Shown here: positions 11,782 to 63,839 of the stretch, in pieces
How positions within the stretch are numbered: position 1 is the first letter of the stretch
Layout of the letters: every line of letters starts with the position of its first letter
NCBI GenBank assembly: GCA_963530135.1
Contig: CAUSBS010000003.1
Location: forward strand, 40,373 to 104,372
Length of the DNA: 64,000 nt
Direction: 5' to 3'
Origin: an uncultured Candidatus Saccharibacteria bacterium
GTDB taxonomy: Bacteria > Patescibacteriota > Saccharimonadia > Saccharimonadales > Saccharimonadaceae
Notes under the pieces: model-generated
The model's database searches: none
The model's input: the letters and a program-made list of their open reading frames with translations, nothing else
Told to the model about the DNA's origin: nothing
Made by a program: the position numbers and the translations under genes

Positions 11782-11835
11782 GGTTTTTATTATATCACCC
11801 TTTACCTCTGTTGTTGTTTATGCTTTAATGGGTGT

Positions 11836-49258: not shown

Positions 49259-49601
49259 CTGGATCAACCATCAACCGATGCCCATCAATATCGCCATCGC
49301 CGCCGCGACTAACGAGCTTGGTATGCAGATGCTTGCGGTCAGTGCTGCGCGGCGTTGTCCGTGGATTGGTCTGTCCGTCCTTTAGCACCCCCGAAAAATC
49401 ATGATGGTCAGAGTGGGTATGTGGCGAGGAGTGGGGCTTGGTGTGATGATGATCATCATCGACCTGATACACATCACTCATAATCCGCCAGGCGGAAACA
49501 ACCGCTTTATCAATATTTGTATCGTGTAAAAATACGCCGAGGCTAGTTGATACGCCAAACGCCATGGTGGCAGTGGTGATAATTTGTGGTAAATATTTCA
49601 T
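49245..49601 (-). CDS. hypothetical exported His-rich protein
   Basis: Signal-like N-terminus, then DDDHHHTKPHSSPHTHSDHHDF. It has a 14-nt convergent overlap with valS. Confidence 0.4.
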   Translation of the reverse strand: MKYLPQIITTATMAFGVSTSLGVFLHDTNIDKAVVSAWRIMSDVYQVDDDHHHTKPHSSPHTHSDHHDFSGVLKDGQTNPRTTPRSTDRKHLHTKLVSRGGDGDIDGHRLMVDPVSVS

Positions 49602-49797
49602 ATTCTATTTGTGTTTACTTCTATGGAGTTGAGCCATAGCAATGTTAGGATAATAGCATAAGGTTTTTATTTTGTCAATAATATTTCCTTATTTGTATGG
49701 TGTGACCCACCTAAAATCATTATTCAACACCCATTTCATACGCCAACAAAACAATAAAATAAGCCTCGGACAAACCGAGACTATAGCGACATAACTC

Positions 49798-49890
49798 TGG
49801 CGGAGGAGGGGAGATTCGAACTCCCGCTACAGGTCTCCCCGTACTAACGATTTAGCAAACCGTCCCCTTCAGCCACTTGGGTACTCCTCC
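49798..49890 (-). tRNA. tRNA-Ser(GCU), CCA encoded
   Basis: Hand fold: acceptor GGAGGAG, anticodon loop UUGCUAA, long variable arm, T-arm GGGAGTTCGAATCTCCC. Confidence 0.85.
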
Positions 49891-49998
49891 ATGAGCCAAA
49901 AATAGTGTATCATAGAAGCAGCGGTCTGGCTAGCCCCGCAATTGGTAGGCGGATTGCAAAACTTGACAATGATTATAAGAAAGAGGATAATAACGCGC

Positions 49999-50406
49999 AT
50001 GAAGAGGTTTTTCGCAGGTATCACTAGCATCATGTTGACCATCGCTGTCGGCACGGTGGTTTTGGGCACTCCGGTATTCGCACTCGGCGAGGGCGGCGTC
50101 ACTCGCGGCATCAATGATGCGCGTGGCGACGGCGTACCAACCAACCTAACCAATGGCGATAGTTCGCTGGTGAGAAAGATTATCAACATCATGCTCTATT
50201 TCATCGGTATCCTTGCCGTAGTTATGTTAATCTTTGGTGGTTTTCGCTATGTTGTTTCCAGTGGCAACAAGGATGCTGTCACCTCGGCAAAGAATACAAT
50301 CCTCTATGCCATCATTGGTCTACTCGTCGCCCTGTTCGCCTACGCCATTATTCAATTTGTCCTCAATACCGTCGTTGGTCTCAGCGGTAACTCTACTGAC
50401 GTATAG
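49999..50406 (+). CDS. T4SS-type pilin-like protein (VirB2/TrbC-like), unlinked seventh paralog
   Basis: Signal peptide MKRFFAGITSIMLTIAVGTVVLGTPVFA. C-terminal two-helix module reads LYFIGILAVVMLIFGGFRYVVSSGNKDAVTSAKNTILYAIIGLLVALFAYAI. Confidence 0.65.
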   Translation: MKRFFAGITSIMLTIAVGTVVLGTPVFALGEGGVTRGINDARGDGVPTNLTNGDSSLVRKIINIMLYFIGILAVVMLIFGGFRYVVSSGNKDAVTSAKNTILYAIIGLLVALFAYAIIQFVLNTVVGLSGNSTDV

Positions 50407-50437
50407 CGGATCATGCCGCTCATGGTATACTAGACAT

Positions 50438-50968
50438 ATGGAAGAGCAGCCACACGTAACCGATACCGAAAATACTCAACAAGATGCGGCCCAGCCGACA
50501 ACTGATTTATCGCAGCCTATCGCCTGGCAAGCCCCTGAGGGTATGCAAATCCACCGCACAACGGGCTGGTATATCGCTGTTGGTTTCGTGGTGCTCGCTC
50601 TGATGGCACTGGCGATTTTTGTTTTTAATAGCTGGACATTCGCAATTTTGCTACCGATTATGGCGGCGGCACTCATATTGCTGCGGTCGCGACCATCGGT
50701 AATGGTTAATTACGCCATCAGCCCCAAGGGAGTTTACGTCGCCGACCGCTTGTATGATTTTAGTGAGTTTCGAGCCTTTGGGCTGGGTCAAGACGGCGAT
50801 CAGCACTCGGCAGTGTTACTGCCGGTCAAGCGGTTCTCGCCAGCACTGACCATCTATTTTTCTGAGGCCGAAGGTGAAGCGATCGTTGACATGCTGGGGG
50901 CGCGGCTACCAATGCAGGAAATTGCGCCGGATGCGCTCGAGAAGCTCATTCGGATCATCAGGCTATAG
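50438..50968 (+). CDS. hypothetical 2-TM membrane protein
   Basis: Start set at ATG 50438. Two adjacent TM helices are followed by a small soluble domain. Confidence 0.45.
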   Translation: MEEQPHVTDTENTQQDAAQPTTDLSQPIAWQAPEGMQIHRTTGWYIAVGFVVLALMALAIFVFNSWTFAILLPIMAAALILLRSRPSVMVNYAISPKGVYVADRLYDFSEFRAFGLGQDGDQHSAVLLPVKRFSPALTIYFSEAEGEAIVDMLGARLPMQEIAPDALEKLIRIIRL

Positions 50969-51077
50969 CTTGCCCCGAGCTAACAGGTGTGCTAGAATAC
51001 AAAAGTTCATTGCCGCTGGCATTGAAAGCACTTTATATTTTTGTTATAGCCAATCGGACTTGTCTGAAAGGCTGTAT

Positions 51078-51154
51078 GCACCCGTAGCTCAGCTGGATAG
51101 AGCGTTGGCTTGCGGAGCCAAAGGTCGTACGTTCGAATCGTGCCGGGTGTACCA
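51078..51154 (+). tRNA. tRNA-Arg(GCG), CCA encoded
   Basis: Hand fold: GCACCCG acceptor, D-arm GCTCAGCTGGATAGAGC, anticodon loop UUGCGGA, T-arm GTACGTTCGAATCGTGC. Confidence 0.8.
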
Positions 51155-51166
51155 CATTAGCTTTAT

Positions 51167-51254
51167 GGAGAGATGCAGGAGTGGTTGAACTGGCCGCTCT
51201 CGAAAAGCGGTATGGGGCAACCCATCGAGGGTTCGAATCCCTCTCTCTCCGCCA
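51167..51254 (+). tRNA. tRNA-Ser(CGA), CCA encoded
   Basis: Hand fold: anticodon stem CCGCT/AGCGG with loop CUCGAAA, and a long variable arm. Confidence 0.85.
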
Positions 51255-51277
51255 GAATCCAGTCGCTACGATTAATT

Positions 51278-51367
51278 GGAAGGGTGACCGAGTGGTTGAA
51301 GGTACCGGTCTTGAAAACCGGCGTGCGGTAACACGTACCGAGGGTTCGAATCCCTCCCCTTCCGCCA
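51278..51367 (+). tRNA. tRNA-Ser(UGA), CCA encoded
   Basis: Hand fold: anticodon stem CCGGT/ACCGG with loop CUUGAAA, and a long variable arm. Confidence 0.85.
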
Positions 51368-51509
51368 GACACGATATCATGAAAGAAAGATTAGAAATAG
51401 TAACCAAGCAGGGGGTCGCTACGATAGCAACCCTCGTTTCATTAGCGCTATCAGCGTCCAGCCGCCAGGGCCATCCTGAAAATACGAACACTCCGACAGA
51501 GCACCATGT

Positions 51510-51962
51510 ATGAAAATCACCATTCTTACCATCGGCAAGCGACACGAACCCTGGGTAGAGCCGGGCATTGGACGCTTTTTAGAGCGCCTCAGAGCACCGT
51601 TCGCCGCAGAAATGATCATCATCCCACATTCTGGCCAAACTGGCGACAGAGCACGCCAGGACGAGTCGGAACGCTTGATATCTCGCCTCAAGCCGCACGA
51701 CTTCGTCATCCTACTCGACGAACGTGGCCGCAACCTGAGTTCGCCAGAACTATCACGGCTCATCCTTGATCATACCGATCAGCACATCGTCATCATCATT
51801 GGCGGAGCATATGGCGTCACCGAGATACTTCACCAGCGAGCCGACGTCGTTTGGTCGCTATCGCGCCTGGTATTTCCACATCAACTGGTGCGGCTCATAC
51901 TCGCCGAGCAGCTGTACCGCGCCCAAGAGATCGCTCGGGGCAGTGCGTATCATCACAACTAG
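51510..51962 (+). CDS. rlmH: 23S rRNA (pseudouridine1915-N3)-methyltransferase
   Basis: Contains MKITILTIGKRHEPWV and IIGGAYG, with a SPOUT C-terminus FPHQLVRLILAEQLYRA. Confidence 0.88.
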   Translation: MKITILTIGKRHEPWVEPGIGRFLERLRAPFAAEMIIIPHSGQTGDRARQDESERLISRLKPHDFVILLDERGRNLSSPELSRLILDHTDQHIVIIIGGAYGVTEILHQRADVVWSLSRLVFPHQLVRLILAEQLYRAQEIARGSAYHHN

Positions 51963-52659
51963 GGTTCGATTTATCATTTGTAGTGGCCTTTTTGTCGTTC
52001 CCCTGACGAGCGATAATCCCCACGCGAATATCCTTGGCACCAGCATCCCGCAGGGTTTGAGCTGCCGCCTTAATCGTTGAGCCAGTAGTGAAAATATCAT
52101 CCAAGATCAGATAGGGGACATCGGCCCGAGCGCCACGCACCCGGAAAAACTGCTGCGCCTGCGCTCTGCGCTCAGCTGCCGAGCGAGCATAATGCTGCGT
52201 CACATTTGTCTGCCTGATCAGTGGCCGTTCGACCCTCAGTCCTCGTCGCCGAGCAAACTGCCGAGCGATCAGCAACATATGATCATAGCCACGCTTACGG
52301 ATATTGGCAGGGGCAGTTGGCACTGGTACAACCACTGTTGAGGTATCGTACTCAGGGAGCAACTCATCTAAGAACCAGGCTAACACCCCACTAGCAGCAC
52401 GCACGCGGTGAAACTTATAATCATCAATCAGCCGCGCCACCGCACCTCGTCGCCACAACGCACAATTGAGCGCCCCATAGGGCAGGGCATGCCGCCGACA
52501 CACATTACCGTTGGTGCATGGCTGCTCACAAATCACGCAGACCCGACAGCGATGTTGTTTCACCGCCTCAAGACACGACTGACACAAAAGCGAGCCAGTT
52601 ATACCGCAACGATAGCAATAATGCGGCGCGATATATGACAGTAACGTATCAATAGGCAT
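51895..52659 (-). CDS. comFC: ComF-family competence protein (phosphoribosyltransferase domain)
   Basis: N-terminal zinc finger CYRCG..CQSC..CRVC, and PRT loop YLILDDIFTTGSTI. The 3' end overlaps rlmH by 68 nt. Confidence 0.8.
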   Translation of the reverse strand: MPIDTLLSYIAPHYCYRCGITGSLLCQSCLEAVKQHRCRVCVICEQPCTNGNVCRRHALPYGALNCALWRRGAVARLIDDYKFHRVRAASGVLAWFLDELLPEYDTSTVVVPVPTAPANIRKRGYDHMLLIARQFARRRGLRVERPLIRQTNVTQHYARSAAERRAQAQQFFRVRGARADVPYLILDDIFTTGSTIKAAAQTLRDAGAKDIRVGIIARQGNDKKATTNDKSNPSCDDTHCPERSLGRGTAARRV

Positions 52660-52754
52660 TTTTCGCTTTTTCGCCTTTCACTCTTGATTATAGCGCACAT
52701 AACCGTTATACTAACAAGTGATATTGTCAATCAGCCTATAAAGGCGGAGGAAAC

Positions 52755-53249
52755 ATGGCACGCAAAAATGACGACTTGTTAATCGAAGATGAGCTAACCG
52801 CAGCTTTTTTGAATGATGATCTGGCTAACGACGCACCGCAACCAGCCGCAGCTACACCCGCAGCAGCACCAGCTACTGCAGCGCCCGCTCCTGATGATAA
52901 TTGGGAGGATGAGGCCGATGATTTGATGGGGCAGCTGGCGGTTGATGTATTTGAATCAGAAACTGAACTTATCATCAAGGCACGGACTGCCGGTGTTGAT
53001 CGTAATGACCTAGATGTCAGCATCTCTGACGGCATCCTTACAATCAGCGGCACCCTATCAAGTGGTGATGAGACCGATGTTAAGAACTGGCATATCCAAG
53101 AATGCTACTGGGGTGAGTTCAGCCGAACCCTCGCGCTGCCAGTTGCGGTCAACGAGGAAGGCGTCAAGGCCGAGCTCAAGGATGGTGTGCTCACTATTAC
53201 CTTCGAAAAGATTAAACAAGAACGCGCCAAGAAGATTCAAGTTCTCTAG
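52755..53249 (+). CDS. Hsp20/alpha-crystallin small heat-shock protein
   Basis: Contains AVDVFESETELIIKARTAGV and GVLTITFEK. TTGATT-17 nt-TATACT lies at 52684..52712. Confidence 0.88.
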   Translation: MARKNDDLLIEDELTAAFLNDDLANDAPQPAAATPAAAPATAAPAPDDNWEDEADDLMGQLAVDVFESETELIIKARTAGVDRNDLDVSISDGILTISGTLSSGDETDVKNWHIQECYWGEFSRTLALPVAVNEEGVKAELKDGVLTITFEKIKQERAKKIQVL

Positions 53250-53300
53250 CCCATAGAGGCGAAAAGCACGAAACTATCAAATCAAACTACTGTAAAAACT

Positions 53301-53323
53301 AACCCCCGGAAACACCGGGGGTT
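53301..53323. terminator. bidirectional terminator between hsp20 and the pilin operon
   Basis: AACCCCCGG-AAACA-CCGGGGGTT forms a perfect 9-bp stem. Confidence 0.7.
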
Positions 53324-53344
53324 ATAAAGATCCTGGCTTATATC

Positions 53345-53725
53345 CTACGAGCCAACACCAGTAGAGGTGATCAGGACGAAGTTAACAATAGCATAGGCAA
53401 AGATTGCAATCACCAGACCAATCACCGCGTACATAATGGTGTTTTTGGCAGTAGTTACCTTACTTGAGTCGCCAGATGAAGTCGTGTAAAGGATACCACC
53501 CCAGATCAACATCACCACCGACAGAATACCGACAAAGTAGAGAATACCGTTGACGACATTCTTGACGAGATCATTCGGACGATCAATACCAGCGGCCGCA
53601 CCCTCGCCCTTAGCGGCTTCTGCACCATTCCTGAGCGTATATTGTGCGTTCGCTACTGGTACTGTTGCAAACGCCAGCACCGTCATAGCGAGTACGCCAG
53701 CGATCATAACTTTGAGTTTATTCAT
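53345..53725 (-). CDS. T4SS-type pilin-like protein, paralog 1
   Basis: Signal peptide ..TVPVANA|Q. Module reads LYFVGILSVVMLIWGGILYTTSSGDSSKVTTAKNTIMYAVIGLVIAIFAYAI. Confidence 0.7.
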   Translation of the reverse strand: MNKLKVMIAGVLAMTVLAFATVPVANAQYTLRNGAEAAKGEGAAAGIDRPNDLVKNVVNGILYFVGILSVVMLIWGGILYTTSSGDSSKVTTAKNTIMYAVIGLVIAIFAYAIVNFVLITSTGVGS

Positions 53726-53783
53726 GTATTACTTCCTTGTTTAGGGTTAATGTCACTTCAGCTGTTATTCTATCATTATTTAG

Positions 53784-54158
53784 CTACTTAAACAAGCCAA
53801 AGACCCAGTTAACAATAGCATACGACAGCACCACCACAATGATACCAATCACCGCGTACATGATGGTGTTTTTGGCAGTAGTTGCTTTTTGGCTATCGCC
53901 CGACGAGGTGATATATTGAAAGCCGCCCCAGATCATGATAATAACTGCTATCGCACCAACAAAATAGAGAAAGATATTCACTACATCACCGATAGTAGTG
54001 CCGATAGGCTTCGTGCTCATCTCCGGTGTTCGAGCTGCCTCAACACCCTTAGTAAACTGAGCCGAGGCGGATGGCAGAGCAACTGGCGTTACGGCCGCCA
54101 CAATAGCGACCACCAGTGATAGAGCAGCGGCTATAAGGGGGTTTTTATATCGTTTCAT
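53784..54158 (-). CDS. T4SS-type pilin-like protein, paralog 2
   Basis: Start set at ATG 54158 behind an AAGGAG SD. Signal peptide ..LPSASA|Q. Module reads MIWGGFQYITSSGDSQKATTAKNTIMYAVIG. Confidence 0.7.
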   Translation of the reverse strand: MKRYKNPLIAAALSLVVAIVAAVTPVALPSASAQFTKGVEAARTPEMSTKPIGTTIGDVVNIFLYFVGAIAVIIMIWGGFQYITSSGDSQKATTAKNTIMYAVIGIIVVVLSYAIVNWVFGLFK

Positions 54159-54174
54159 ACATTTCTCCTTTTTC

Positions 54175-54540
54175 TTATATTTTGCCAAATACGAAGTCAA
54201 CAATAGCGTAGGACAGCAGCGCGACTGCAACACCAATCACTGCGTACATGATCGTTGACTTAGCAGCCTTGACCTTGCTCGAGTCGCCAGCCGAGGTTAC
54301 GTACTGAAAACCGCCAACAATAATCATGATAACGGAAACTGCGCCGAGAATTAATAGAACGGCATCGACAAGATTCTTAAACAACGGCTGTATCGTTGCG
54401 CCACGGTTTTTACAAACCTCACCACTAGAGCCCGAGCAGGCACCGTAAATATCGACGCTCTGGGCAGATGCGCTTGATGCTACGACTAGCGGAGCAATGA
54501 GCGCTGCCATCATACCGATAATCACTACGAGTTTTTTCAT
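54175..54540 (-). CDS. T4SS-type pilin-like protein, paralog 3 (Cys pair in variable region)
   Basis: Signal peptide ..ASSASA|Q, Cys pair in GACSGSSGEVCKN, and module IIVGGFQYVTSAGDSSKVKAAKSTIMYAVIG. Confidence 0.7.
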   Translation of the reverse strand: MKKLVVIIGMMAALIAPLVVASSASAQSVDIYGACSGSSGEVCKNRGATIQPLFKNLVDAVLLILGAVSVIMIIVGGFQYVTSAGDSSKVKAAKSTIMYAVIGVAVALLSYAIVDFVFGKI

Positions 54541-54842
54541 ATTGCCGATCCTTTCATGCCACTAATGACAAAGTTAGTTATGAGAAACGCAGAGAGAATG
54601 ATGATGATGCCGATTATTGTGCCAAGGATGGTATTTTTCGCCTTCACAACATTATTGCTATCACCACCAGCCCGAACATAATTAATACCAGCAATCACTA
54701 GCATCAAAATTGCAATTGCCCCGGCAAAGAAATACACCGTATTGAGGATACTGCTAAGCGCATCCGTCGAGGCATTATTTGTCGGAATGCCGAGTGAGTC
54801 TGGCGATCCCAATAATCCAGCCACAAAGCGCATCAACGTCAT
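54537..54842 (-). CDS. T4SS-type pilin-like protein, paralog 4 (no evident signal peptide)
   Basis: Module reads LVIAGINYVRAGGDSNNVVKAKNTILGTIIG. ATGA overlaps occur at both ends. Confidence 0.6.
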   Translation of the reverse strand: MTLMRFVAGLLGSPDSLGIPTNNASTDALSSILNTVYFFAGAIAILMLVIAGINYVRAGGDSNNVVKAKNTILGTIIGIIIILSAFLITNFVISGMKGSAI

Positions 54843-55297
54843 GATCGCGGTAACCCCAATCCGTCGGCTATAATGTTCACCAAGGCAACTGAAGCAATCG
54901 CAATCACCAGACCGATAGCCGCATTGATTACTGTTTTCATACCATTCGCCATTTGGTTTGCATCACCGCCACTTGTCAGATACAGGAAGCCGCCATAGAT
55001 CACAAAACCAACCGTCACAAAACCAGCCAACTGCAATAAATCCTCGACAACGTTCAAGATGACCCGCCAGATGAAACCGCTGAGTGTCGTGTGATTGTTT
55101 GGGTCATTTTGGGCGCGCTTATCACTATTGTCAACGACCGCCTTGATACTACAGTCGTCCTTGGTTAGTCCGTCATACCACGGCTTGAGCGTTAGAATAT
55201 TGCCGCCACAGGCCGCATTGGCTGGCGTTGCCTGAAGCATCGACATCATCAACGACCCCGCAATCATCAGCCCAAGTGCAATCACAAGGTGCTTCAT
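54839..55297 (-). CDS. T4SS-type pilin-like protein, paralog 5 (Cys pair, longest variable region)
   Basis: Signal peptide ..ATPANA|A, Cys pair in CGGN..DDCSIK, and module VIYGGFLYLTSGGDANQMANGMKTVINAAIG. Confidence 0.65.
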   Translation of the reverse strand: MKHLVIALGLMIAGSLMMSMLQATPANAACGGNILTLKPWYDGLTKDDCSIKAVVDNSDKRAQNDPNNHTTLSGFIWRVILNVVEDLLQLAGFVTVGFVIYGGFLYLTSGGDANQMANGMKTVINAAIGLVIAIASVALVNIIADGLGLPRS

Positions 55298-55674
55298 CAG
55301 AACACTCCTCCCGGGATCAGGAAATTAGTGATGGCTACAAAAAATGCAAAGATAAGGAGGCCGATAGCAGTGTTAGCCCAGAGATCTTTGGCCTTTTTAA
55401 TATTTTCTGGGCTACCACCGGCAGCAGAGTAGAGAATACCACCAAAGATAACCGCGCCAACCGCCAGAATACCGATACCGGCAGACATGATTTGGATGAC
55501 AATTTTAATAATGCCGAGAATGGCAGCGTCACCAGTTGCACCGCCACAATTAATGATCGAGGTCGGTGCATCGCCACATTTACTCTCGGCAAATGCAACA
55601 CCGCCAGATAACATGGCGCCGCAGGTAATAGTCGTGAGGAGGGCAGTAGTGATGAGAATATTTCTTTTTGTCAT
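55297..55674 (-). CDS. T4SS-type pilin-like protein, paralog 6 (Cys pair)
   Basis: Start set at ATG 55674. Signal peptide ..GGVAFA|E, Cys pair in KCGDAPTSIINCGG, and module VIFGGILYSAAGGSPENIKKAKDLWANTAIG. Confidence 0.65.
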   Translation of the reverse strand: MTKRNILITTALLTTITCGAMLSGGVAFAESKCGDAPTSIINCGGATGDAAILGIIKIVIQIMSAGIGILAVGAVIFGGILYSAAGGSPENIKKAKDLWANTAIGLLIFAFFVAITNFLIPGGVF

Positions 55675-55695
55675 ATACGGATCTCTTACCCTTAA

Positions 55696-55724
55696 ATTGT
55701 AAAATAGCGGCAGGAAAAATGCAA
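55696..55724 (-). promoter_or_regulatory. candidate promoter of the pilin operon (TTGCAT-17 nt-TACAAT)
   Basis: Minus-strand hexamers at 55724..55719 and 55701..55696. Confidence 0.45.
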
Positions 55725-55732
55725 ACGATTTC

Positions 55733-55761
55733 TTGAAAAAGTCATAAAAGTTTGCTATCAT
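55733..55761 (+). promoter_or_regulatory. candidate promoter of tRNA-Asp (TTGAAA-17 nt-TATCAT), back-to-back with the pilin promoter
   Basis: Hexamers at 55733..55738 and 55756..55761. The tRNA 5' end lies 12 nt downstream. Confidence 0.5.
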
Positions 55762-55773
55762 ACGAAAAGTTAT

Positions 55774-55851
55774 GCGCCCGTAGTGAAGTTGGCCTATCAC
55801 GCCTCCCTGTCACGGAGGAGATCGCCGGTTCGAATCCGGTCGGGCGCGCCA
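55774..55851 (+). tRNA. tRNA-Asp(GUC), CCA encoded
   Basis: Hand fold: GCGCCCG acceptor, anticodon stem CCTCC/GGAGG with loop CUGUCAC, T-arm GCCGGTTCGAATCCGGT. Confidence 0.88.
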
Positions 55852-56048
55852 GAATGAGAATGTTACTACCCGAGCAGCCCATCTTTGTAGAGCAGGGGCT
55901 GTTTTTGTTTACTTTATTGCCGTTAGGGTATTGCTAAATATACAGAATGTGTTACAATAATATTATTCAGAGTTCCAATTATCTACTCTGAGGTGGATTA
56001 AAACTATCATGTGACTGGCCACCGGCCAGAGAAAGGACTCCAAGCGTT

Positions 56049-57020
56049 ATGGAAAGACACGACCATGACCCAAGTAGTTCATTAGAAGGAAACAGATTAA
56101 CTCGTCGCGGAGTGTTAGCTGGGGTTGTCGGCGGAGCAACAATGCTGATTGTTGGCTGCGGTAAGGATCGTATGGCTGTTCCCCCTGATTACTCTACACG
56201 AAGTGCTTCACCATCAGAATCACCATCCACCTCACCATCACCATCTGAGACTGTTGATCCGGAAGTGGCGGCACGAATGCGGGCCAGAGAAGAATACGAA
56301 GAACAAGTAAAAAAAATTGATGAAATACCGTACGACGAATTCATTAAGCTACCGCCAGAGGAGAGAAACAAGATTCTCCAAGCAGAAATCAACTACATGG
56401 AGAAGTCTGGCCGCGCAAAAGATAAAACAGATCATATACTCTACCCAAAAGACAGTCTGCCCTTTGGTGACTATTATAAGAAGTCACCTGCGGACCAAGA
56501 CCCAAAAAAGATGCTCACTGATCCGTTTCTTGCTGTCCAATTTGCCCTCTATGGAAGGTTTACTTACACAGATGACGATATAAAACAAAACTACGAGGAT
56601 TATGCTAAAAAGTTAGTCTCAGAAGCCTTTTTGAATCCCCAAATGGACATGGATAAGCTGCTTGAGGAGATGCGGGCCGGCAAAGTCTCGGATGAAGAGT
56701 ATTTCGCTAAACGTAAAGTAATGGAGCTCATTCATAAAAGAGCAGAGCAGATTAGGTCTAACTCCGGTAGTTCCGAAGACGACGTCGAGCTCTGGAAAAT
56801 GAAAGACATTGAGGGCTTTCCTGTCGATCAGTCGGATGTAGTGGTTGACCCCAAAACGGGCAAGCCGCTTGAGACACATATCACACACTTCTATTCCTAC
56901 GACGGGGATAAAAGAGGCTCTACTCCAGATGGCCAATTCTACACAATTGCTTCGGATCCAACAGTGAATAGGTGGAAGATTGCAGGATCTTCACACTCAG
57001 GCCCCGTTCTCTCTAGATAG
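56049..57020 (+). CDS. predicted Tat-signal lipoprotein of unknown function
   Basis: The N-terminus has a twin-arginine motif TRRGVLAG followed by the lipobox LIVGC and a Ser/Pro-rich linker. Confidence 0.55.
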   Translation: MERHDHDPSSSLEGNRLTRRGVLAGVVGGATMLIVGCGKDRMAVPPDYSTRSASPSESPSTSPSPSETVDPEVAARMRAREEYEEQVKKIDEIPYDEFIKLPPEERNKILQAEINYMEKSGRAKDKTDHILYPKDSLPFGDYYKKSPADQDPKKMLTDPFLAVQFALYGRFTYTDDDIKQNYEDYAKKLVSEAFLNPQMDMDKLLEEMRAGKVSDEEYFAKRKVMELIHKRAEQIRSNSGSSEDDVELWKMKDIEGFPVDQSDVVVDPKTGKPLETHITHFYSYDGDKRGSTPDGQFYTIASDPTVNRWKIAGSSHSGPVLSR

Positions 57021-57040
57021 TGTCAATAACGCGTCCAACA

Positions 57041-57068
57041 AAAGAAGAGCTAAATTAGCTCTTCTTTT
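57041..57068 (+). terminator. rho-independent terminator after the lipoprotein gene
   Basis: Perfect 12-bp stem AAAGAAGAGCTA / TAGCTCTTCTTT with a 3-nt loop and a T-tract. Confidence 0.7.
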
Positions 57069-57095
57069 GAATTACTAACAATAGCGTGGTAATAT
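57067..57095 (+). promoter_or_regulatory. promoter TTGAAT-17 nt-TGgTAATAT, 9 nt upstream of ATG 57105
   Basis: Hexamers at 57067..57072 and 57090..57095, with TG at 57087..57088. No SD. Confidence 0.6.
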
Positions 57096-57104
57096 ATTCT
57101 CATA

Positions 57105-60100
57105 ATGCTTACGCAAAAAAAGACCCTGCATCAACGCATTCGCATTACCTTGGTTGGGCTTGCTGCACTATTGATCATTCCGATGCTCATGACGTTTTTT
57201 GTATTGTCGCCGACCGCTAGTGCGGCTCGAACTCCGCTTGATTATTCACCACAGCTCACACAGGTAAAGCAGCTTCTACTTGCTCGTGCCATGAGAATGT
57301 GTATCATTAATGGTAATGGCGGCCCCGGATTTGGCGGAAATCTTACTGCAGAACGGATAGCACGCGGTGACTGGGGTGGGAGCTTTACCACCACCGTCGG
57401 CCCGATTCTTGATGGTGATAATGATGGACAGTTTGACTGTAAAGAAGTGGTATCCGCTACTCGAGATGTATTCGGCTATAGCTCTTTTATCGATATGTTT
57501 TGCGCCCTAAAGGGTGAGTGGCGAGATGATGCCAATCTCGATTGTCTCAGTAACATAGGCAAACCAGAATATAGTGGAGACAAGTGGAATATACCGAAAG
57601 ACAGAGGTGTATACGCAATTCAAGTTCTTGAAAAAAAGGGCGGCAGAAGTCTCAAGTTTGATTCAGCACTGGTCAACTATTCACTAGCTATGTCAGTACT
57701 CTTATCAGGCCAAAATCTTGGCTGCAAGGCTGAGTGGCGAGGATTTACTAGTGGTGAAGGTGCGCCAGATAACATTAGGGATCTTTTAAGGGGTGAGAAT
57801 AATAGGCCGGTGAATATTGCTTTAGCTGATGGCACATCGGCAGAGGGGCTTTATTATATCCCAAACCTAAATAAAAAAGTGAGGTTATCTTCCAAAGTTG
57901 AATCACCCTATGACCTTCCCGATGGCGTAAAGCCAGATATGTCGTGTGAAGAGATTGCAGCATGGGCATCAAGGAGTGCCGAGGGAGCGGCGCAATCAGC
58001 AAAAACCGACTCTACTGAAAATACCCGTAAGGCTATCCGTAGCGCCCTTATAAAAAGGTGTGTCCAGTCACGAGGTGGAGGACCTGCACAACAAATTTGC
58101 GAAAGTCAGGTTGACGGCTGGATGAACGCATGTAAAGACAAGATGCCGTCAAGCGGCGCTGTGGCAAACTCCAGCGAATATATTAAATGTATTGCTGATC
58201 AGTCTGGGTATAATGAAAAAGAGATTAAAGACACCCTCTCTAACGTCTCTGCCGATCCCCCTGCTGCCCAGAATAAGAGTGATGAAAAAAAACCAGAGTG
58301 TGCCGTCAAGGACCTTGGCTGGCTCATTTGTCCGGTCGTTAATTTCTTAGCTGATATTTCGGATGCAGCTTTTGCCATGATCGCCGACAATTTCCTAAAG
58401 ATTGAACCAGGCATCGCCTCTGGAGGCGAGGTACAGGCAGCCTGGGGAATTATGCGCAACATTGCCAATGGTGCATTTATCATCATGTTCCTGGCAATTA
58501 TCATATCTCAGCTCACTGGCTTTGGAATCTCAAACTACGGCATTAAAAAGATGCTACCGCGACTCATTATCGCCGCAATCCTCGTGAACTTATCGATTTA
58601 TATCTGTCAAATTGCCGTCGACCTGTCTAATATCCTTGGCTATGGTCTGCGCGCTGGGCTCGGTAATGTTGGTGACGAAATTGCCCGGGCAAATGAAATT
58701 TTTCAATCAGGTCAAGGGCGTGGTACATGGGGAGGGTTTGCACTAACTATCCTCGCCGCAGGCACCGCCGGGATTCTCGCCCTCGCAGTCTTGATAGGAG
58801 CACTCGTTTCGGGGCTAGTTGTTATGGCAACCATTGCCGTATTGCTAATCGCCCGCAAAGCACTTATTGTCATCCTTATTGTCATCTCGCCGCTTGCTTT
58901 TGTCGCCTTTCTACTACCAAACACCGAAAAATTCTTTAGTAAATGGCGCTCCATCTTTGTGGGGCTACTCATGGTCTTTCCAACAATCGGCCTACTGTTC
59001 GGTGGTGGTATACTGGCAGGAGCCATTGTTAAGGCCGGAGGTGGCAATGACACAATCATGCAGATTGTCGGTGAGCTAATCAAAGTCCTGCCGCTCATCG
59101 CCGTATGGAGTGTTCTCAAAAAAGCCATTGATGTCGCTGGATCAATCAGCCAACACATCAATAATGCCGGCGGCCGCCTCAGTGGCGGCGCCAGAAATTG
59201 GGCAAAGGGTGCATATGACAACTCCCGACTTGGTGAAATGGAAAAATTCCGCAAACAGCGGCGACAACGCCGCAAGGCCCTCATGCGAGCCGGGGCATGG
59301 AAGGGTGATGGGGCTATTGATAGAATACCCGTCATCGGAAGAAATGCAAGAGCCAGACGCAGCAAGGCATTCAACGAAAGTGTCTTTGCAAACAATCGCT
59401 TCCTCGGAGGAGACTATGGTATTCGTAGTGCTGCAGAGGGACAGGACGCGGTCGACGATGAAGAACGCAAGACAGCAGAGCGTATGCTCGACTATCGATA
59501 CAATGGCGATGCAGCTGCTGCGCTGAGGAGTGCAGGGGATAATGAAATGCTCAAGTATGTTGCTTCTAAAAAGCTTGCATCAACCGGCAAGCATGGCGCT
59601 CAGCAGATGTATGACTATCTCCAAAGCGGTGGAACTATCAGTACCCGCCGCATGGCAGAATCCCTCGTTAGTATGGAGCAGTACCATGCCGGACTATTTG
59701 AGATGGGTACAAGCGCTATTGACCAAATGGAGCAGCATGGAGCAACAACCGTCAGCTTTAGTCCACAGCAAATGGCCGAGTTGACCGCCAAGGGACTTAA
59801 TGGGTTGAGTGATGAAAAGCTAGCACGACAAGCATCTGGTGCAGTTAAGATTGCTGGTGAGACTGAGTTTACCAAGGGCGGCCAGAGAATGGTCGGTATT
59901 TCTGCCGAGCGGGCAGGCTCACTGCTAGATAATAAGCGTGTTAATACCTCAATATCAAGTAGTACACGTGCTGAGTTTGAGAATATACGAAACGGTGGCG
60001 GTAGAGCAGCCGAACCTCAGGAGCTACGAGTGCCACATGATATGAGCGGTGTCTCAGCAGCTGATGTTAAGAATACGATCAACGCCACAACGGAAATTCA

Positions 60101-60266
60101 TAACATCACCGAGGCAGTCCCGTCAGACACCCCAACGGGGCGAACGTTTGTCGCCGGAACAGGGAGGGGGCCAGCTCCACCACAACCACAATCTCCATCC
60201 CCAGCACCAGCTGATAATCAAAATAACCGTAACAATCGGAATAATAATCCGCCGACAACCAGCTAA
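57105..60266 (+). CDS. giant VirB6/TrbL-like polytopic membrane protein, paralog A (Cys-rich ectodomain, cytoplasmic C-terminal domain)
   Basis: N-terminal signal/anchor, a ~380-aa domain with ~14 Cys, then a multi-TM core (GISNYGIKKMLPRLIIAAILVNLS) and a long soluble C-terminus ending in a Pro/Asn-rich tail. Confidence 0.55.
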   Translation: MLTQKKTLHQRIRITLVGLAALLIIPMLMTFFVLSPTASAARTPLDYSPQLTQVKQLLLARAMRMCIINGNGGPGFGGNLTAERIARGDWGGSFTTTVGPILDGDNDGQFDCKEVVSATRDVFGYSSFIDMFCALKGEWRDDANLDCLSNIGKPEYSGDKWNIPKDRGVYAIQVLEKKGGRSLKFDSALVNYSLAMSVLLSGQNLGCKAEWRGFTSGEGAPDNIRDLLRGENNRPVNIALADGTSAEGLYYIPNLNKKVRLSSKVESPYDLPDGVKPDMSCEEIAAWASRSAEGAAQSAKTDSTENTRKAIRSALIKRCVQSRGGGPAQQICESQVDGWMNACKDKMPSSGAVANSSEYIKCIADQSGYNEKEIKDTLSNVSADPPAAQNKSDEKKPECAVKDLGWLICPVVNFLADISDAAFAMIADNFLKIEPGIASGGEVQAAWGIMRNIANGAFIIMFLAIIISQLTGFGISNYGIKKMLPRLIIAAILVNLSIYICQIAVDLSNILGYGLRAGLGNVGDEIARANEIFQSGQGRGTWGGFALTILAAGTAGILALAVLIGALVSGLVVMATIAVLLIARKALIVILIVISPLAFVAFLLPNTEKFFSKWRSIFVGLLMVFPTIGLLFGGGILAGAIVKAGGGNDTIMQIVGELIKVLPLIAVWSVLKKAIDVAGSISQHINNAGGRLSGGARNWAKGAYDNSRLGEMEKFRKQRRQRRKALMRAGAWKGDGAIDRIPVIGRNARARRSKAFNESVFANNRFLGGDYGIRSAAEGQDAVDDEERKTAERMLDYRYNGDAAAALRSAGDNEMLKYVASKKLASTGKHGAQQMYDYLQSGGTISTRRMAESLVSMEQYHAGLFEMGTSAIDQMEQHGATTVSFSPQQMAELTAKGLNGLSDEKLARQASGAVKIAGETEFTKGGQRMVGISAERAGSLLDNKRVNTSISSSTRAEFENIRNGGGRAAEPQELRVPHDMSGVSAADVKNTINATTEIHNITEAVPSDTPTGRTFVAGTGRGPAPPQPQSPSPAPADNQNNRNNRNNNPPTTS

Positions 60267-60290
60267 GACTATTGACTTTTCTCTATAAAA

Positions 60291-62921
60291 ATGCTACCAT
60301 TTCTAGTAATGGAGTGGTTACGTTCACAAGGGCGATCATCAATGCGATGGTTGCAGTGGTTCATATTGCTGGCGGCAGGTCTCCTAGTCAGTATTTTTTT
60401 GAGTACAGTCATAACCTCGAGCCAGGTATCGGCGGCAGATGCAAAGTGGGATAGCAGTAAAATATCCTACGACAACGAGACGTTTGAACGGGTTTCTGAT
60501 GCTGACAAACTAAAAGCCCTCGATTTAGGTGCGGACCAGATGGTCTACATGCCTAAGAAAACTGTGGCCAATAACCAAGATATTCGGGTTGTCCACTTTC
60601 CATCAACGGGCGACCTTGGGTCAATGACCTCGGTGTCCCTGACGACATTTACGTATACTTCGCCAAACACTTACACAAAGAAAGAATCGACTACACTATC
60701 AATTGACCCACCGAGCCAAAACTCTGCATCTTCATGTGAGGTTGCTGGCGGTATCGGCTGGATTCTTTGTCCTGTTTCGGCGTGGCTGGCCAGCTCCATC
60801 GACTGGATGTTTGGGGTGCTTAAAGGGTTTCTTGTAGTGCCACCACTTCAGACGGGCAATCAAGCTAGCGGTATTTTTCTAGCCTGGAACATTGTTCGCA
60901 ATATCGCCAACAGCATTTTTATTATCATGTTCATAGTCATTATTTATTCACAAATTACTTCTATGGGCATCTCCAATTATGGTATCAAAAAAATGTTGCC
61001 TCGTTTGATTATCGCGGCACTACTGGTTAACCTATCATTCCACATATGCGCCATACTTCTCGATCTGTCAAACATCGCCGGAAGCGCACTTCAGGACATG
61101 TTCATGAACATTCGTAACACGGTCGCTACCCTGGGCGGGTCAGCGCCACCATCCGACCCCATGACCTGGCAAGAGGTTACTTTCCAGATTTTGGGCGGAG
61201 CTGCCGGTGGTACAGCACTGGCCGCCGGGCTGATTATGCGGGCTGAGCTACTTCCTTTTGTTGTGCCACTTTTAACCGGGCTCAGTTTGGCGCTTCTTCT
61301 CGTGGTCGTTATCATGGCCGCTCGACAAGCACTAATTATCATTTTAATCATTGTTTCGCCGCTAGCTTTTGTGGCTTACTTACTGCCGGGGACAGAAAAG
61401 TGGTTTGATAAATGGAAGGATGTCTTCTTGACGATGCTGATATTCTTCCCGGGTTTTGCGGCAGCCTTTGGTGGGGCACAGCTCGCAGGCTCAGTCATTA
61501 TGCAAAACGCCGCGGGACCGAACGGGGCGGTGATGTACATCCTCGGTATGGCAGTTCAGATTGCGCCACTCGCTCTAACGCCGTTGATGATCAAGTTAGG
61601 TGGTGGGCTCCTCGGTAAATTCACCGGCCTGGTTAACGACCGCAGCAAGGGATTGTTCGACCGATCTAAGAACTGGGCAAAAGAGCGAAGCGAGATTACT
61701 AAGCGTAAAAAACTCAACAAACGTCCAAACAGCAAGTTTACCCCAACGGCATGGCGACGCAGACTGGCGCAGTCGTCTCAAAATCGTAAGGATATGCTCA
61801 AAGAGTTGCAAGATGAATCTGATGTTATACGAAGGGGGACTGGTTCCTATGCTAAGATTGATCAATACCGACGAATGGTTAACGAAGATAAAAAGGCTAA
61901 TGAGGGTCGGCTAGAGGACGCTTGGGGCAATCATCTGATGTCTAATTCTGCCGCCTTTGACCGATATGCACAAGCACAATCATGGTCTGAGCAGGCTGAG
62001 GCTTCTAAGGGAGCGGTTGATACTCATTATAAGTCGATGCGGGCACTCAAGCCTACCCAGACTAATGAGTTGTCTTCGTCGTTCCAAGAAAGCCTGGAGC
62101 GTGCCCGAGGAGCAGCGCAGCAAGTGGCTCTCCAGGGCCTGCAGAACGCTTCATCGCAGCGTGTTGCTGATGATCGATGGGCAAATGAATTGAAAGAAAA
62201 CGAGACGATGCGCGATCTGGCTGGACAGGTCGAACAAATATACTTCGGTGACAGTCGCGGTGCCGATCGAGCGATTGCCATGGCAGAACAAACGCTCAGC
62301 AATGCCTACAACGAAGGCGTCGAGAGCGCAAATCGCTTACTTGATCGATACAATGCCGATGAGTTTGACATGGTAGACATGGCTCTTGGTACTGTTGGCA
62401 GCGAGGTCAAAGGCATTACTGTCACCAGAGATGTCAAGGCTGCATCACTTCGCCGCGTTCTTGGCGGTAAGAACATTAAAGCCATTAAGTCGTTAACAAG
62501 CCAGCTTGACTTTGCTCACCTTGACGATGCCCTCGCCCAAGAAGCTGGCGACGCTCTCAAGAACAACCCAGCACGACCGTTCTGGATCGGATCTTCAATT
62601 GCTAATAAGATTAAGATTAATAATATGCCGTGGTCTGGCCAAGAGTTTATCACCCAAACGACCATTAAGGCACTTAGCGAGGATAAATTGTCGACCGAAG
62701 GCCTGGTCACGCAAGACGCTGTCTATCTTAATACCTTGGCCGATATGATTGAAAATTCAAACTTCCGAGGACAAATTTCACAACAGCATCTTCAGATTCT
62801 GCGCGACCGACTAAATGAGGTACAGACGGTTCCGCAGTACAGCGGTCGTATAGGTGAAAGTATCGGTGCAATTAAGCGAATGGAGGCGGCTCTTTCGTAT
62901 CTGCCGCCAACAGAAACCTAA
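60291..62921 (+). CDS. giant VirB6/TrbL-like polytopic membrane protein, paralog B (ATG 60342 behind AAGGG is the likelier start)
   Basis: Shares the core with paralog A (GISNYGIKKMLPRLIIAALLVNLS; GWILCPV versus GWLICPV). The ecto- and C-terminal domains differ. Confidence 0.55.
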   Translation: MLPFLVMEWLRSQGRSSMRWLQWFILLAAGLLVSIFLSTVITSSQVSAADAKWDSSKISYDNETFERVSDADKLKALDLGADQMVYMPKKTVANNQDIRVVHFPSTGDLGSMTSVSLTTFTYTSPNTYTKKESTTLSIDPPSQNSASSCEVAGGIGWILCPVSAWLASSIDWMFGVLKGFLVVPPLQTGNQASGIFLAWNIVRNIANSIFIIMFIVIIYSQITSMGISNYGIKKMLPRLIIAALLVNLSFHICAILLDLSNIAGSALQDMFMNIRNTVATLGGSAPPSDPMTWQEVTFQILGGAAGGTALAAGLIMRAELLPFVVPLLTGLSLALLLVVVIMAARQALIIILIIVSPLAFVAYLLPGTEKWFDKWKDVFLTMLIFFPGFAAAFGGAQLAGSVIMQNAAGPNGAVMYILGMAVQIAPLALTPLMIKLGGGLLGKFTGLVNDRSKGLFDRSKNWAKERSEITKRKKLNKRPNSKFTPTAWRRRLAQSSQNRKDMLKELQDESDVIRRGTGSYAKIDQYRRMVNEDKKANEGRLEDAWGNHLMSNSAAFDRYAQAQSWSEQAEASKGAVDTHYKSMRALKPTQTNELSSSFQESLERARGAAQQVALQGLQNASSQRVADDRWANELKENETMRDLAGQVEQIYFGDSRGADRAIAMAEQTLSNAYNEGVESANRLLDRYNADEFDMVDMALGTVGSEVKGITVTRDVKAASLRRVLGGKNIKAIKSLTSQLDFAHLDDALAQEAGDALKNNPARPFWIGSSIANKIKINNMPWSGQEFITQTTIKALSEDKLSTEGLVTQDAVYLNTLADMIENSNFRGQISQQHLQILRDRLNEVQTVPQYSGRIGESIGAIKRMEAALSYLPPTET

Positions 62922-62945
62922 GCTAATCTGCTATAATAATACTCA

Positions 62946-63839
62946 ATGGCTGTCTACAAAGTTCCTCAGGATGTGGAAGCTGATGACAAGCTGCTCGGGC
63001 CGTTTAGTTTCAAGCAGTTTGTTTTCCTGATCGTTGCGGTCGGTATGATTGCGCTGGCATGGGGACTGTTCTCGGTGCTGCCGCCACTAGCGATTATCCC
63101 GGTGCCGATTGCGCTGTTTTTTGGGGCATTAGCCTTGCCGCTGCGCAAGGATCAACCGATGGAGGTTTACCTCGCGGCAGTCATTTCGTTTATGCTCAAA
63201 CCCAAGCAACGGCTGTGGCGAGCCGATGGTACCGAACGAATGGTCGAGGTGATCGCCCCGCGGGTTGAGGAAAAACAATACGGTAAGGGGTATGATCAGG
63301 CTGAGGTTAATCGCCGGCTATCATACCTGGCGACACTGGTCGATACACACGGCTGGTCGGTGCGCGGCGTTGATAATCCAAACAGTTCGGTAAGGGGTAG
63401 CTCGATGCAGGCGGACTGGTATAATGAAGCCCAAGCCGCTCAGGATCCACTCGACCCAAGCAGCAAGACCGCACGCGCCTTTGAAACACTGATTGAGCGG
63501 GCTGACGAAAAGCGCCATGATGACATTGTCCAGCAAATGCAGCGAGCTCAAACCGCCCAGCCAGCCACACCCGCTCAAGATGACCAAGCCTACTCTCTAC
63601 AAACCTCAACCTTCAACCCATATCCAACTATGCAGCAGTCTATTATCACCCCTATCGGCGAGCAATCGGCTACACCTGCCCAAGATGACCAAGCCGCGCC
63701 CCCTAGCACATCACCCGTGTCGCCTGCTATAATGGACTTAGCGCGTAATCACAGCGACCTATCAGTCGCCTCGTTGCAACGAGAGGCTGGCCGTATCCAG
63801 AAAGAACACGATAAGGAAGTAGTGATTTCGCTTCACTAG
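62946..63839 (+). CDS. PrgI/VirB3-like T4SS membrane protein with long disordered C-terminal tail
   Basis: MAVYKVPQDVEADDKLLGPFSFKQFVFLIVAVGMIALAWGLF resembles the PrgI-family N-terminus plus a TM hairpin. The tail carries two ATPAQDDQA repeats. Confidence 0.55.
   Translation: MAVYKVPQDVEADDKLLGPFSFKQFVFLIVAVGMIALAWGLFSVLPPLAIIPVPIALFFGALALPLRKDQPMEVYLAAVISFMLKPKQRLWRADGTERMVEVIAPRVEEKQYGKGYDQAEVNRRLSYLATLVDTHGWSVRGVDNPNSSVRGSSMQADWYNEAQAAQDPLDPSSKTARAFETLIERADEKRHDDIVQQMQRAQTAQPATPAQDDQAYSLQTSTFNPYPTMQQSIITPIGEQSATPAQDDQAAPPSTSPVSPAIMDLARNHSDLSVASLQREAGRIQKEHDKEVVISLH

Follow-up and report, generated by a model that had tools for sequence, protein, structure and literature searches.

The window analysed here is a stretch of 64,000 nucleotides (nt) from an uncultured Candidatus Saccharibacteria bacterium (assembly GCA_963530135.1, contig CAUSBS010000003.1), and its 3' part carries two adjacent genes for large membrane proteins, referred to below as paralog A and paralog B. 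A preliminary description, made from the sequence alone, had pointed to these two same-strand open reading frames (ORFs) and quoted a peptide from each; both frames and both peptides are present. [quoted passage not shown] Each protein has a membrane core flanked by an N-terminal domain (NTD) and a C-terminal domain (CTD), laid out as follows (aa, amino acids; TM, transmembrane segments; AF2, AlphaFold2; pLDDT, predicted local distance difference test).

57105-60266, + strand: paralog A, a 'long-NTD' extended VirB6-like protein of 1053 aa (ORF list; Pfam TrbL at aa 480-659, E 6e-4).
57105-57227, + strand: A signal peptide or membrane anchor, aa 1-41 (basic n-region, hydrophobic 14-36, ASA/A site; hydropathy scan and sequence).
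57228-58289, + strand: A Cys-rich, predicted extracytoplasmic alpha/beta domain, aa 42-395, with 10 Cys (AF2, conservation).
58299-58337, + strand: A C399-x5-GWLIC409PV juxtamembrane motif (motif search; C399, G405, C409 and P410 invariant in the family).
58290-59204, + strand: A polytopic membrane core common with B, aa 396-700, about 7 predicted TM (BLASTP, hhalign, family hydropathy/charge profile).
59205-59999, + strand: A predicted cytoplasmic basic linker and all-helical CTD, aa 701-965 (AF2; K/R-rich stretch after the last TM).
60000-60263, + strand: A low-complexity tail, probably disordered, P/N/Q-rich, aa 966-1053 (pLDDT <50).
60291-62921, + strand: paralog B, a 'short-NTD' extended VirB6-like protein of 876 aa counted from the first ATG (ORF list).
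60438-60725, + strand: B small beta-sandwich ectodomain (predicted), aa 50-145, without Cys (AF2 strands, pLDDT about 65-72).
60735-60776, + strand: B C149-x6-GWILC160PV juxtamembrane motif (motif search, family conservation).
60726-61655, + strand: B polytopic membrane core, aa 146-455, about 7 predicted TM (BLASTP, hhalign, hydropathy/charge), 92-100% identical across the window's clade.
61800-62921, + strand: B polymorphic all-helical CTD, aa 504-876, the window carrying allele class 1 (blastn break, identity drop, allele classes).

Paralog A has more than 100 full-length ortholog clusters in oral Saccharibacteria, 71-100% identical. Its soluble regions amount to 354 aa on the N-terminal side and about 350 aa on the C-terminal side, and the AF2 models, which for both proteins were built from 40-sequence alignments, give an alpha/beta fold at aa 45-385 (pLDDT about 80-90) and a helical domain at aa 790-960 (pLDDT about 80-87). 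The NTD had been credited with about 14 Cys; the whole protein has 13, with 10 in the ectodomain proper, two more in the motif and a last one within a TM helix. Conservation in the family is at least 90% for C66, C112, C133, C147, C281, C332 and C343, and the ectodomain (about 350 aa) is probably disulfide-bonded. It has no Pfam match, and Foldseek of the full-length model against the PDB gave no significant fold match; because no match reached an E of 0.001 or below, this ectodomain is taken to be without a recognisable solved relative. Searching 5.8 billion proteins with the ectodomain alone returned two contig-end fragments only, a search that was uninformative as it missed known full-length orthologs. 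A Pfam scan at E up to 5 with the four isolated end domains and the ORF upstream of A found nothing except a 12-bit RuvA_C-like blip at A aa 368-387.

For paralog B the likely start is M7 (nt 60309), as the consensus of its orthologs opens with MEWL and the closest ortholog, P0121, has 870 aa. The N-terminus consists of a basic n-region, a hydrophobic segment and a VSA/A site, and the soluble regions comprise 96 aa N-terminal and about 420 aa C-terminal. AF2 models a beta-sandwich at aa 50-140 (pLDDT about 65-72), for which Foldseek lists weak FN3-like matches (probability 0.35-0.44), and an all-helical region at aa 620-870 (pLDDT 85-90). The two Cys earlier assigned to the NTD of B are both those of the motif, a third lies in a TM helix, and the ectodomain proper has none. 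With the B CTD as query, phmmer against 1.84 billion representatives found 61 proteins, in which the domain stands at the C-termini of proteins of 830-1111 aa, besides shorter probable fragments; from this placement the domain appears private to the extended VirB6-like family described here. Foldseek of the C-terminal domains of A and B against the PDB returned only generic helical-repeat or 14-3-3-like noise.

The two cores are homologous. In the pairwise alignment that the preliminary description had recommended, BLASTP matched A 369-733 with B 128-489 (381-aa alignment) at 38% identity and E 2e-54, with nothing significant elsewhere in the pair, and hhalign of the A and B family cores gave a probability of 100% and E 9e-74. 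The cores had been called near-identical, which overstates the case: the quoted 67-aa stretch (A 446-512, B 198-264) is identical at 50 of 67 positions (74.6%), but identity over the whole core is about 38-41%. The element C-x6-GW(L/I)(I/L)CPV before the first core helix is indeed present in both proteins, although its spacing is x5 in A and x6 in B, and its Cys, Gly and Pro are invariant in both ortholog families; the element is read as a Cys-loop juxtamembrane helix. Within the core, A and B agree best in the TM1-loop-TM2 hairpin (GISNYGIKKMLPR) and in the TM5 loop (P.TEK.F.KW); W614 of A and W375 of B, within TEK.F.KW, are invariant in their respective families.

Outside the core the two ends behave differently. 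The NTDs were described as unrelated, and this stands, since hhalign gives them a probability of 0.1%, with no detectable relationship. The C-terminal regions were described in the same way and are dissimilar by BLAST, but hhalign relates them with a probability of 69% (E 4.5e-5 over 213 columns), and a hidden Markov model (HMM) of B-type CTDs matches the CTDs of seven A-type proteins from other lineages at E 4.7e-29 to 2.9e-7. By these profile comparisons the CTDs of A and B are remote homologues, so that the ancestral gene already had a core plus a helical CTD. This remote homology is absent from the published accounts of these systems compared here.

We assigned membrane topology manually, applying hydropathy and the positive-inside rule to family-averaged profiles. 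In both families the profile runs through TM1, a conserved basic loop (GISNYGIKKMLPR), TM2, a loop of about 36 aa and a hydrophobic block of about 60 residues, which in B is divided into three helices by R317/E319 and R345. There follow the conserved loop P.TEK.F.KW, two helices and at least 14 K/R within about 70 residues. Conserved K/R thus lie in the loops after TM1 and TM5, with a poly-basic stretch after the last TM, and because of the positive-inside rule applied to this profile, a signal sequence and about seven TM are predicted, with the NTDs outside and the CTDs cytoplasmic, which is the canonical VirB6 orientation. The ten conserved ectodomain Cys in A, and the lack of Cys in either CTD, support this orientation. 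The prediction places the Cys-rich domain outside and not in the cytoplasm, in line with the preliminary description. VirB6 proteins are recognised by at least five TM with an outside N-terminus and a cytoplasmic C-terminus, and extended VirB6 proteins by at least five hydrophobic helices plus at least one large hydrophilic domain; the hand prediction gives the former arrangement for A and B, and both proteins have the latter.

The surroundings of the pair include further T4SS genes.

62946-63839, + strand: PrgI-family (VirB3-like) protein, 24 nt downstream of B (Pfam PF12666, E 4.4e-12).
53345-55800, - strand: array of six VirB2-like T4SS pilin paralogs, divergently transcribed (Pfam PF18895 on all six, E 5e-6 to 4e-16).
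49942-50406, + strand: seventh T4SS_pilin, isolated, beside tRNA-Ser (Pfam).

The earlier assignment of A and B to the VirB6/TrbL-like proteins of T4SS holds up in this context. Pfam TrbL (PF04610) was matched at E of 0.01 or below by 34 of 40 A-family members (best E 5.6e-6), as the sole family matched, and the orthologs bear a precomputed match to PF19590 (TrbL_3). Paralog B is counted as TrbL/VirB6-related through A, because the cores of the two are homologous by hhalign. In Foldseek searches against the PDB, the top match of A is R388 TrwI/VirB6 (8rtd_L, E 0.35, probability 0.63), and TrwI/VirB6 is also among the matches of B (7o3v_F, target-normalised TM-score 0.46); both are non-significant. 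Three contigs (L001-L003) are 96-98% identical in DNA to the window across the locus (proteins: A 99.6%, PrgI 98.3%, upstream ORF 98.8%), and in these PrgI is followed by a TraC-like ORF, a P-loop VirB4 ORF and two large M23/lysozyme proteins. We compared 81 loci, 78 of them from a scan of GTDB species representatives and the others L001-L003; in almost all of these PrgI follows the VirB6-like gene or genes. The joint encoding with VirB3 and VirB4 by which VirB6 is recognised is therefore present (PrgI in the window, VirB4 in L001-L003), as are the components of a Saccharibacteria monoderm-type T4SS, with the pilin array, the VirB6-like pair and PrgI in the window and VirB4 in the near-identical contigs. 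No coupling protein is evident in the locus. Homologs come from Candidatus Saccharibacteria, Nanosynbacter and oral taxon 488, and the window also holds the housekeeping genes valS, polA, murE and nrdA.

The duplication is old and has been retained. Both paralog types are carried by 46 of the 81 loci; the gene order is A-B-PrgI in 38 and B-A-PrgI in 8, and an A-type gene stands alone next to PrgI in 18. All eight B-A-PrgI loci are from environmental Saccharimonadales, with another gene separating the paralogs. The B-type (short-NTD) cores all fall into a single clade of a neighbour-joining tree built from 125 cores; this clade spans environmental and oral lineages, from which it follows that the duplication is old and that B is the derived copy. 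Neither ORF is disrupted in any of the loci examined.

Three loci stand apart by their taxonomic labels. A full A-type ortholog of 1003 aa, with a Cys-rich NTD, the CTIPQLGWILCPA motif and GISNYGIKKMLPR, lies at 9146-12157 of a 674-kb scaffold labelled 'Arthrobacter sp. SW1' scaffold_1 (L027, NZ_MJLT01000001.1), in a locus of 62% G+C; the gene comes either from a Saccharibacteria epibiont whose genome was assembled together with that of its actinobacterial host or from a transfer to an actinobacterium. Two others, from a Sphingobacteriales and a Spirochaetia metagenome-assembled genome (MAG; L051 and L052), look like mis-binned short contigs.

The end domains show a strain-level polymorphism that the cores do not share. 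In blastn of the window against L001-L003 the alignment breaks at 61799 and resumes at 62926, and B is about 99% identical to its orthologs there up to residue 503 and about 30% identical from residue 504 to the end. Among GTDB species-representative genomes of the window's clade together with L001-L003, the NTD and core of B are 92-100% identical, while the C-terminal 373 residues form discrete classes. Class 1 comprises the window, L004, L005, L006, L009, L010 and P0121 (at least 95% identical internally); class 2a comprises L001-L003, L007, L008, L011-L013 and P0122 (89-100% identical internally); and class 2b is P0123, about 70% identical to 2a. Classes 1 and 2 are 30-35% identical and are each other's nearest relatives (E about 1e-50). 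They cross the relationships of the cores, since L006 and L009 (class 1) have cores 99% identical to those of L007, L011 and L013 (class 2). No such split was found in other oral clades, where 137 B-type proteins form one CTD cluster, and a C-terminal dimorphism as a general feature of B was accordingly rejected: the split is confined to the window's clade. Paralog A is mosaic as well, as pairs with cores at least 97% identical have ectodomains anywhere from 50% to 100% identical, and some pairs with cores 80-88% identical share nearly identical ectodomains. Judged from these identities, the A ectodomain is reassorting independently of the A core. Strain-level cassette polymorphism of the B cytoplasmic domain and the A ectodomain is new, in that it is absent from the published accounts of these systems compared here.

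A test for positive selection in the ectodomains had been suggested. Pairwise Nei-Gojobori ratios of nonsynonymous to synonymous divergence (dN/dS), calculated at the gene-domain level, have medians of 0.04-0.13 in all six domains and a maximum of 0.31, which indicates purifying selection in every domain and, in gene-wide pairwise comparison, no positive selection. Synonymous divergence is saturated between allele classes. For L011 against L013, dS is 0.13 in the A core and 0.013 in the A CTD and is saturated in the A NTD; for the window against L001, it is saturated in the B CTD with flanks at 0.1-0.25. Within class 1 the B CTD is more conserved than the B core, and its dS, lower there than that of the core, hints that the class has spread recently. 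Low dN/dS together with saturated dS means that the divergence between classes is old and did not come from a surge of adaptive change; the low dN/dS pattern fits neither relaxed constraint nor positive selection detectable as a gene-wide burst. The alignments fit old allelic lineages that recombination has reshuffled under purifying selection.

Other genes of the locus vary too. A 1020-aa Peptidase_M23 protein encoded after VirB4 (L004 19679-22741; L001-L013 compared) is 87-97% identical in some species; in others it aligns over only about 15% of its length, at about 48% identity, and it is polymorphic independently of B. It is another swapped module of the T4SS locus. Species in which the A ectodomain has only about 60-68% identity to that of the window agree at 98-100% in the VirB4 ATPase ORF.

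Much of the wider system has been described before. The chromosomal monoderm-type T4SS of Saccharibacteria is known (PMC7427843, PMC12102498, PMC12857230), and transposon sequencing (Tn-seq) has found it essential for epibiotic growth in Southlakia epibionticum (PMC10633639). In that organism two genes, SEML1_0013 (1088 aa, with the Foldseek label TrbL/VirB6) and SEML1_0011 (998 aa, labelled 'T4SS protein'), lie on either side of a small gene with a Tat signal, upstream of PrgI, and both are called essential (PMC10633639, Tables S1 and S2). SEML1_0011 is classed as essential at every time point, yet 43-46 of its 109 input insertion sites persist stably, with about 800-1100 normalised reads (PMC10633639 Table S1). 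TM7x has two adjacent genes annotated virB6, of which TM7x_00055 is higher at the initial encounter and TM7x_00060 higher in stable symbiosis; the authors describe machinery genes without consistent expression change (bioRxiv 10.1101/2022.03.25.485537). Given these annotations in TM7x and S. epibionticum, the pair as such was already known. The locus, taken together with L001-L003, resembles the T4SS of both (Quinonero-Coronel et al. 2025, PMC12102498; Wang et al. 2023, PMC10633639) in having a pilin array, two large VirB6-like genes, PrgI, VirB4 and hydrolases of the cell wall, with valS, Hsp20 and RlmH close by. It differs in gene order, which is lipoprotein-A-B-PrgI in the window and B-type, small gene, A-type, PrgI in environmental Saccharimonadales and, by our assignment of its genes, in S. 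epibionticum. The anatomy of a shared core with different ends, and the allele classes of the end domains, are not dissected in the TM7x and S. epibionticum papers (PMC12102498, PMC10633639).

The preliminary description had also proposed the added domains on a large VirB6 as a possible novelty. The 'extended VirB6' is an established category (Alvarez-Martinez & Christie 2009, summarised in PMC12857230), and in the sections of PMC2653234 drawn on here (Gillespie et al. 2009) Rickettsia has five tandem extended VirB6 paralogs, RvhB6a-e, of 674-1154 aa and with divergent flanks. After the orthologous genes of TM7x and S. epibionticum, which are part of the same system, this category and then the Rickettsia paralogs are the nearest known parallels to A and B. 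According to those sections the likeness is that of an obligately host-dependent bacterium with a reduced genome and adjacent VirB6/TrbL-domain proteins whose flanking regions are highly divergent. The Rickettsia system is there a diderm P-type T4SS with VirB7-11 and VirD4, unlike the monoderm type of the window, and it has five paralogs with VirB6 domains about 80% divergent, compared with two paralogs and cores about 40% identical here. Strain-level cassette swapping is not mentioned for RvhB6a-e in those sections, and no homology of the A or B flanking domains to the RvhB6 flanks was found with the tools used. An essential Trp is reported there for Agrobacterium tumefaciens VirB6, to which the invariant W614 of A and W375 of B may correspond. 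With overstated core identity, a C-terminal homology that had been missed and a protein category already known, the initial observation is only partly confirmed and its interpretation partly supported.

R388 TrwI (PDB 7o3v/8rtd) and pCF10 PrgH are polytopic inner-membrane T4SS platform proteins, as A and B are predicted to be. The TrwI chains in the PDB have about 260-270 residues without large soluble domains, unlike A and B, and the similarity of A and B to TrwI is not significant (E 0.35-3.3, target-normalised TM-score 0.29-0.46, on low-confidence cores). A VirB6-like pentamer has been proposed as the base for polymerisation of VirB2-like pilins, Gram-positive systems included; the pentamer is described for R388 and, by modelling, for pCF10 (bioRxiv 10.64898/2025.12.18.695078).

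By analogy with R388 TrwI and pCF10 PrgH, the conserved core of A and B may serve as the membrane platform on which VirB2-like pilins would polymerise, with PrgI/VirB3 and VirB4 docking beneath. For the TM1-loop-TM2 hairpin and the TM5 loop, contact with partners common to both paralogs, for instance pilins or PrgI/VirB4, is probable; the ectodomains could reach into the cell wall or towards the host interface, and the helical cytoplasmic domains could offer docking surfaces for the ATPase or for substrates. The paralogs would be non-redundant, forming either one mixed oligomer or two assembly states, and the variable end domains would act as exchangeable specificity modules on a fixed machine.

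A comparison from conjugation illustrates the last point. The TraG proteins of F-like and SXT/R391 elements have a VirB6-like N-terminal part and a large C-terminal domain on which the specificity of mating-pair stabilisation and of entry exclusion depends, so that an extended VirB6 carries polymorphic specificity determinants in its C-terminal part. Unlike TraG systems, no Eex/TraS-like partner was identified near A and B, and neither the whole proteins nor their isolated end domains had a TraG_N or TraG-like Pfam match. To our knowledge the Saccharibacteria T4SS is not conjugative. We put forward only tentatively, and as a doubtful proposal, that the end domains are exchangeable specificity cassettes (at least three old B-CTD classes and at least three A-ectodomain classes) that homologous recombination reassorts among co-resident oral species on a nearly invariant machine. 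On this reading the classes appear to be maintained by some kind of balancing or frequency-dependent selection. If the proposal is right, the cassettes would govern the range of host strains open to parasitism, the choice of substrates for loading, or self/non-self discrimination like that of TraG-Eex pairs, and would amount to a code of specificity within a T4SS that has been called essential for epibiotic growth.

A number of points weigh against the interpretation of A and B as extended VirB6 subunits with exchangeable end modules. The TrbL match of A itself has 20 bits (E 6e-4, profile positions 25-203 of 215), under the cut-off of 25.9 bits, none of 40 B-family members matches TrbL, and the window's B matches no Pfam family directly. 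The structure prediction called for earlier gave confident AF2 end domains (A NTD, A CTD and B CTD), but the full-length models of A and B had nothing at E of 0.001 or below in Foldseek against the PDB, their membrane cores are modelled with low confidence (pLDDT about 30-60), and a PDB sequence search with both family profiles found no relevant relative. The topology comes from hand analysis and from no dedicated predictor, and the 60-residue hydrophobic block of A (545-604) could hold two or three helices. SEML1_0013 we infer to be the B-type and SEML1_0011 the A-type protein of S. epibionticum by length, gene order and published domain boundaries and not by sequence; part of SEML1_0011, possibly the 3' cytoplasmic domain, may tolerate disruption. 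No gene within 10 kb on either side co-varies with the B C-terminal class as a partner, substrate or immunity gene would.

The low Pfam scores bear on whether the proteins are instead permeases of another transporter class, since KEGG assigns K01992 (ABC-2 type permease) to SEML1_0011 and SEML1_0013 (PMC10633639 Table S1). We regard this as highly improbable. The homology search proposed earlier for a non-T4SS transporter family came out negative, with neither ABC-2 nor any other such family matched in Pfam/NCBIfam scans, and neither an adjacent cognate ATP-binding-cassette gene nor a significant ABC-2 match for the core was seen; TrbL as the sole family matched, TrwI/VirB6 as the best structural matches, and the linkage to PrgI in almost all of the 81 loci and to VirB4 in L001-L003 point to a T4SS. 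That one copy is a redundant or decaying duplicate, its divergent ends reflecting relaxed constraint, would agree with end domains that diverge much faster than cores, with the low-complexity last 90 or so residues of A and with the many insertions tolerated by SEML1_0011. Both genes are nevertheless intact throughout, called essential and kept across environmental and oral Saccharibacteria, and dN/dS is as low in the variable domains as elsewhere, with the class 1 B CTD more conserved than the core; decay is therefore very unlikely, if a little easier to entertain than a permease. The least probable of these alternatives is that the class switch in B is an assembly or binning chimera and not an allelic polymorphism. 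Most of the sequences do come from metagenome assemblies and MAGs, but each class occurs in at least five independent assemblies, class 2 also in the complete genome CP128407 (L011), the breakpoint is at one shared codon with the stop codon as the 3' end of the divergent tract, and both classes are of equal length (876 and 877 aa) as well as mutual closest relatives.

Within a T4SS, A and B could also belong to two alternative stage-specific machines, for example one for pilus biogenesis or first contact and one for sustained substrate transfer, and not to a mixed oligomer. The opposite expression of the two TM7x genes leans slightly towards distinct roles for the paralogs, and the 18 loci with an A-type gene alone beside PrgI make an A-only machine seem viable. 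The A-B junction also holds a sigma-70-like match (TTGACT-17-TACCAT with an upstream TG, 60272-60300, overlapping the first ATG of B), which is only a lead for independent expression of B: the region has 15 promoter-like matches, not above the 12.0 +/- 3.7 of shuffled sequences, and with a spacing of only 24-42 nt between A and B the pair looks co-transcribed. The TM7x authors' finding of no consistent change for machinery genes, and the calling of both S. epibionticum genes as essential under a single co-culture condition, also speak against separate machines, which we hold possible though on the whole unlikely.

The T4SS to which A and B are assigned is one of the few machines that have been found genetically required for the epibiotic life of Saccharibacteria. 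The paired large VirB6 genes as such are a re-discovery of a described system and a known protein category. The domain map of its two largest membrane subunits shows experimenters where to cut. The cores, PrgI and VirB4 are frozen across species, and strains differ by exchange of the A ectodomain, the B CTD, the giant M23 protein and the lipoprotein upstream of A; in human oral TM7 these exchanged parts are candidates for determining host range or the choice of substrate.

Two features lie upstream of A.

56049-57020, + strand: ORF of 323 aa with a Tat-like RR signal and a lipobox-like Cys ('RRGVLAGVVGG...VGC'), hypervariable between strains, without Pfam match.
57039-57069, + strand: perfect 14-bp hairpin between the upstream ORF and A, a possible terminator (RNA fold -18.8 kcal/mol, z = -6.7).

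The 323-aa ORF is 27-38% identical to its orthologs in most sister species and 80-94% in a few, a polymorphism independent of the A and B allele classes. Its position and the type of its signal make it a possible counterpart of SEML1_0012, a non-essential gene in S. epibionticum. A -10-like element, 'TGgTAATAT', lies within 57085-57104, about 12 nt before the ATG of A, with no obvious Shine-Dalgarno sequence, and A may head its own, nearly leaderless transcription unit.

In the pilin array, the longest ORF of the last member (55297-55800) overlaps tRNA-Asp (55774-55851), and gene callers give 125 aa for it in L001; because of these two observations its true start is probably internal. VirB4 appears as two ORFs in L001 (16735-19660, just past the 3' end of the window), a 356-aa TraC-like and a 620-aa P-loop protein. 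The window region is syntenic with the near-origin T4SS locus SEML1_0006-0019 of S. epibionticum (gene table, PMC10633639), and because the counterpart in strain ML1 adjoins dnaA, the synteny suggests that the window lies near the replication origin. Common to window 46703-63839 and ML1 are valS, the isolated pilin, RlmH, Hsp20, the pilin array, the VirB6 pair, PrgI, ribonucleotide reductase and murE. The cumulative GC skew of the window flattens after about 46 kb.

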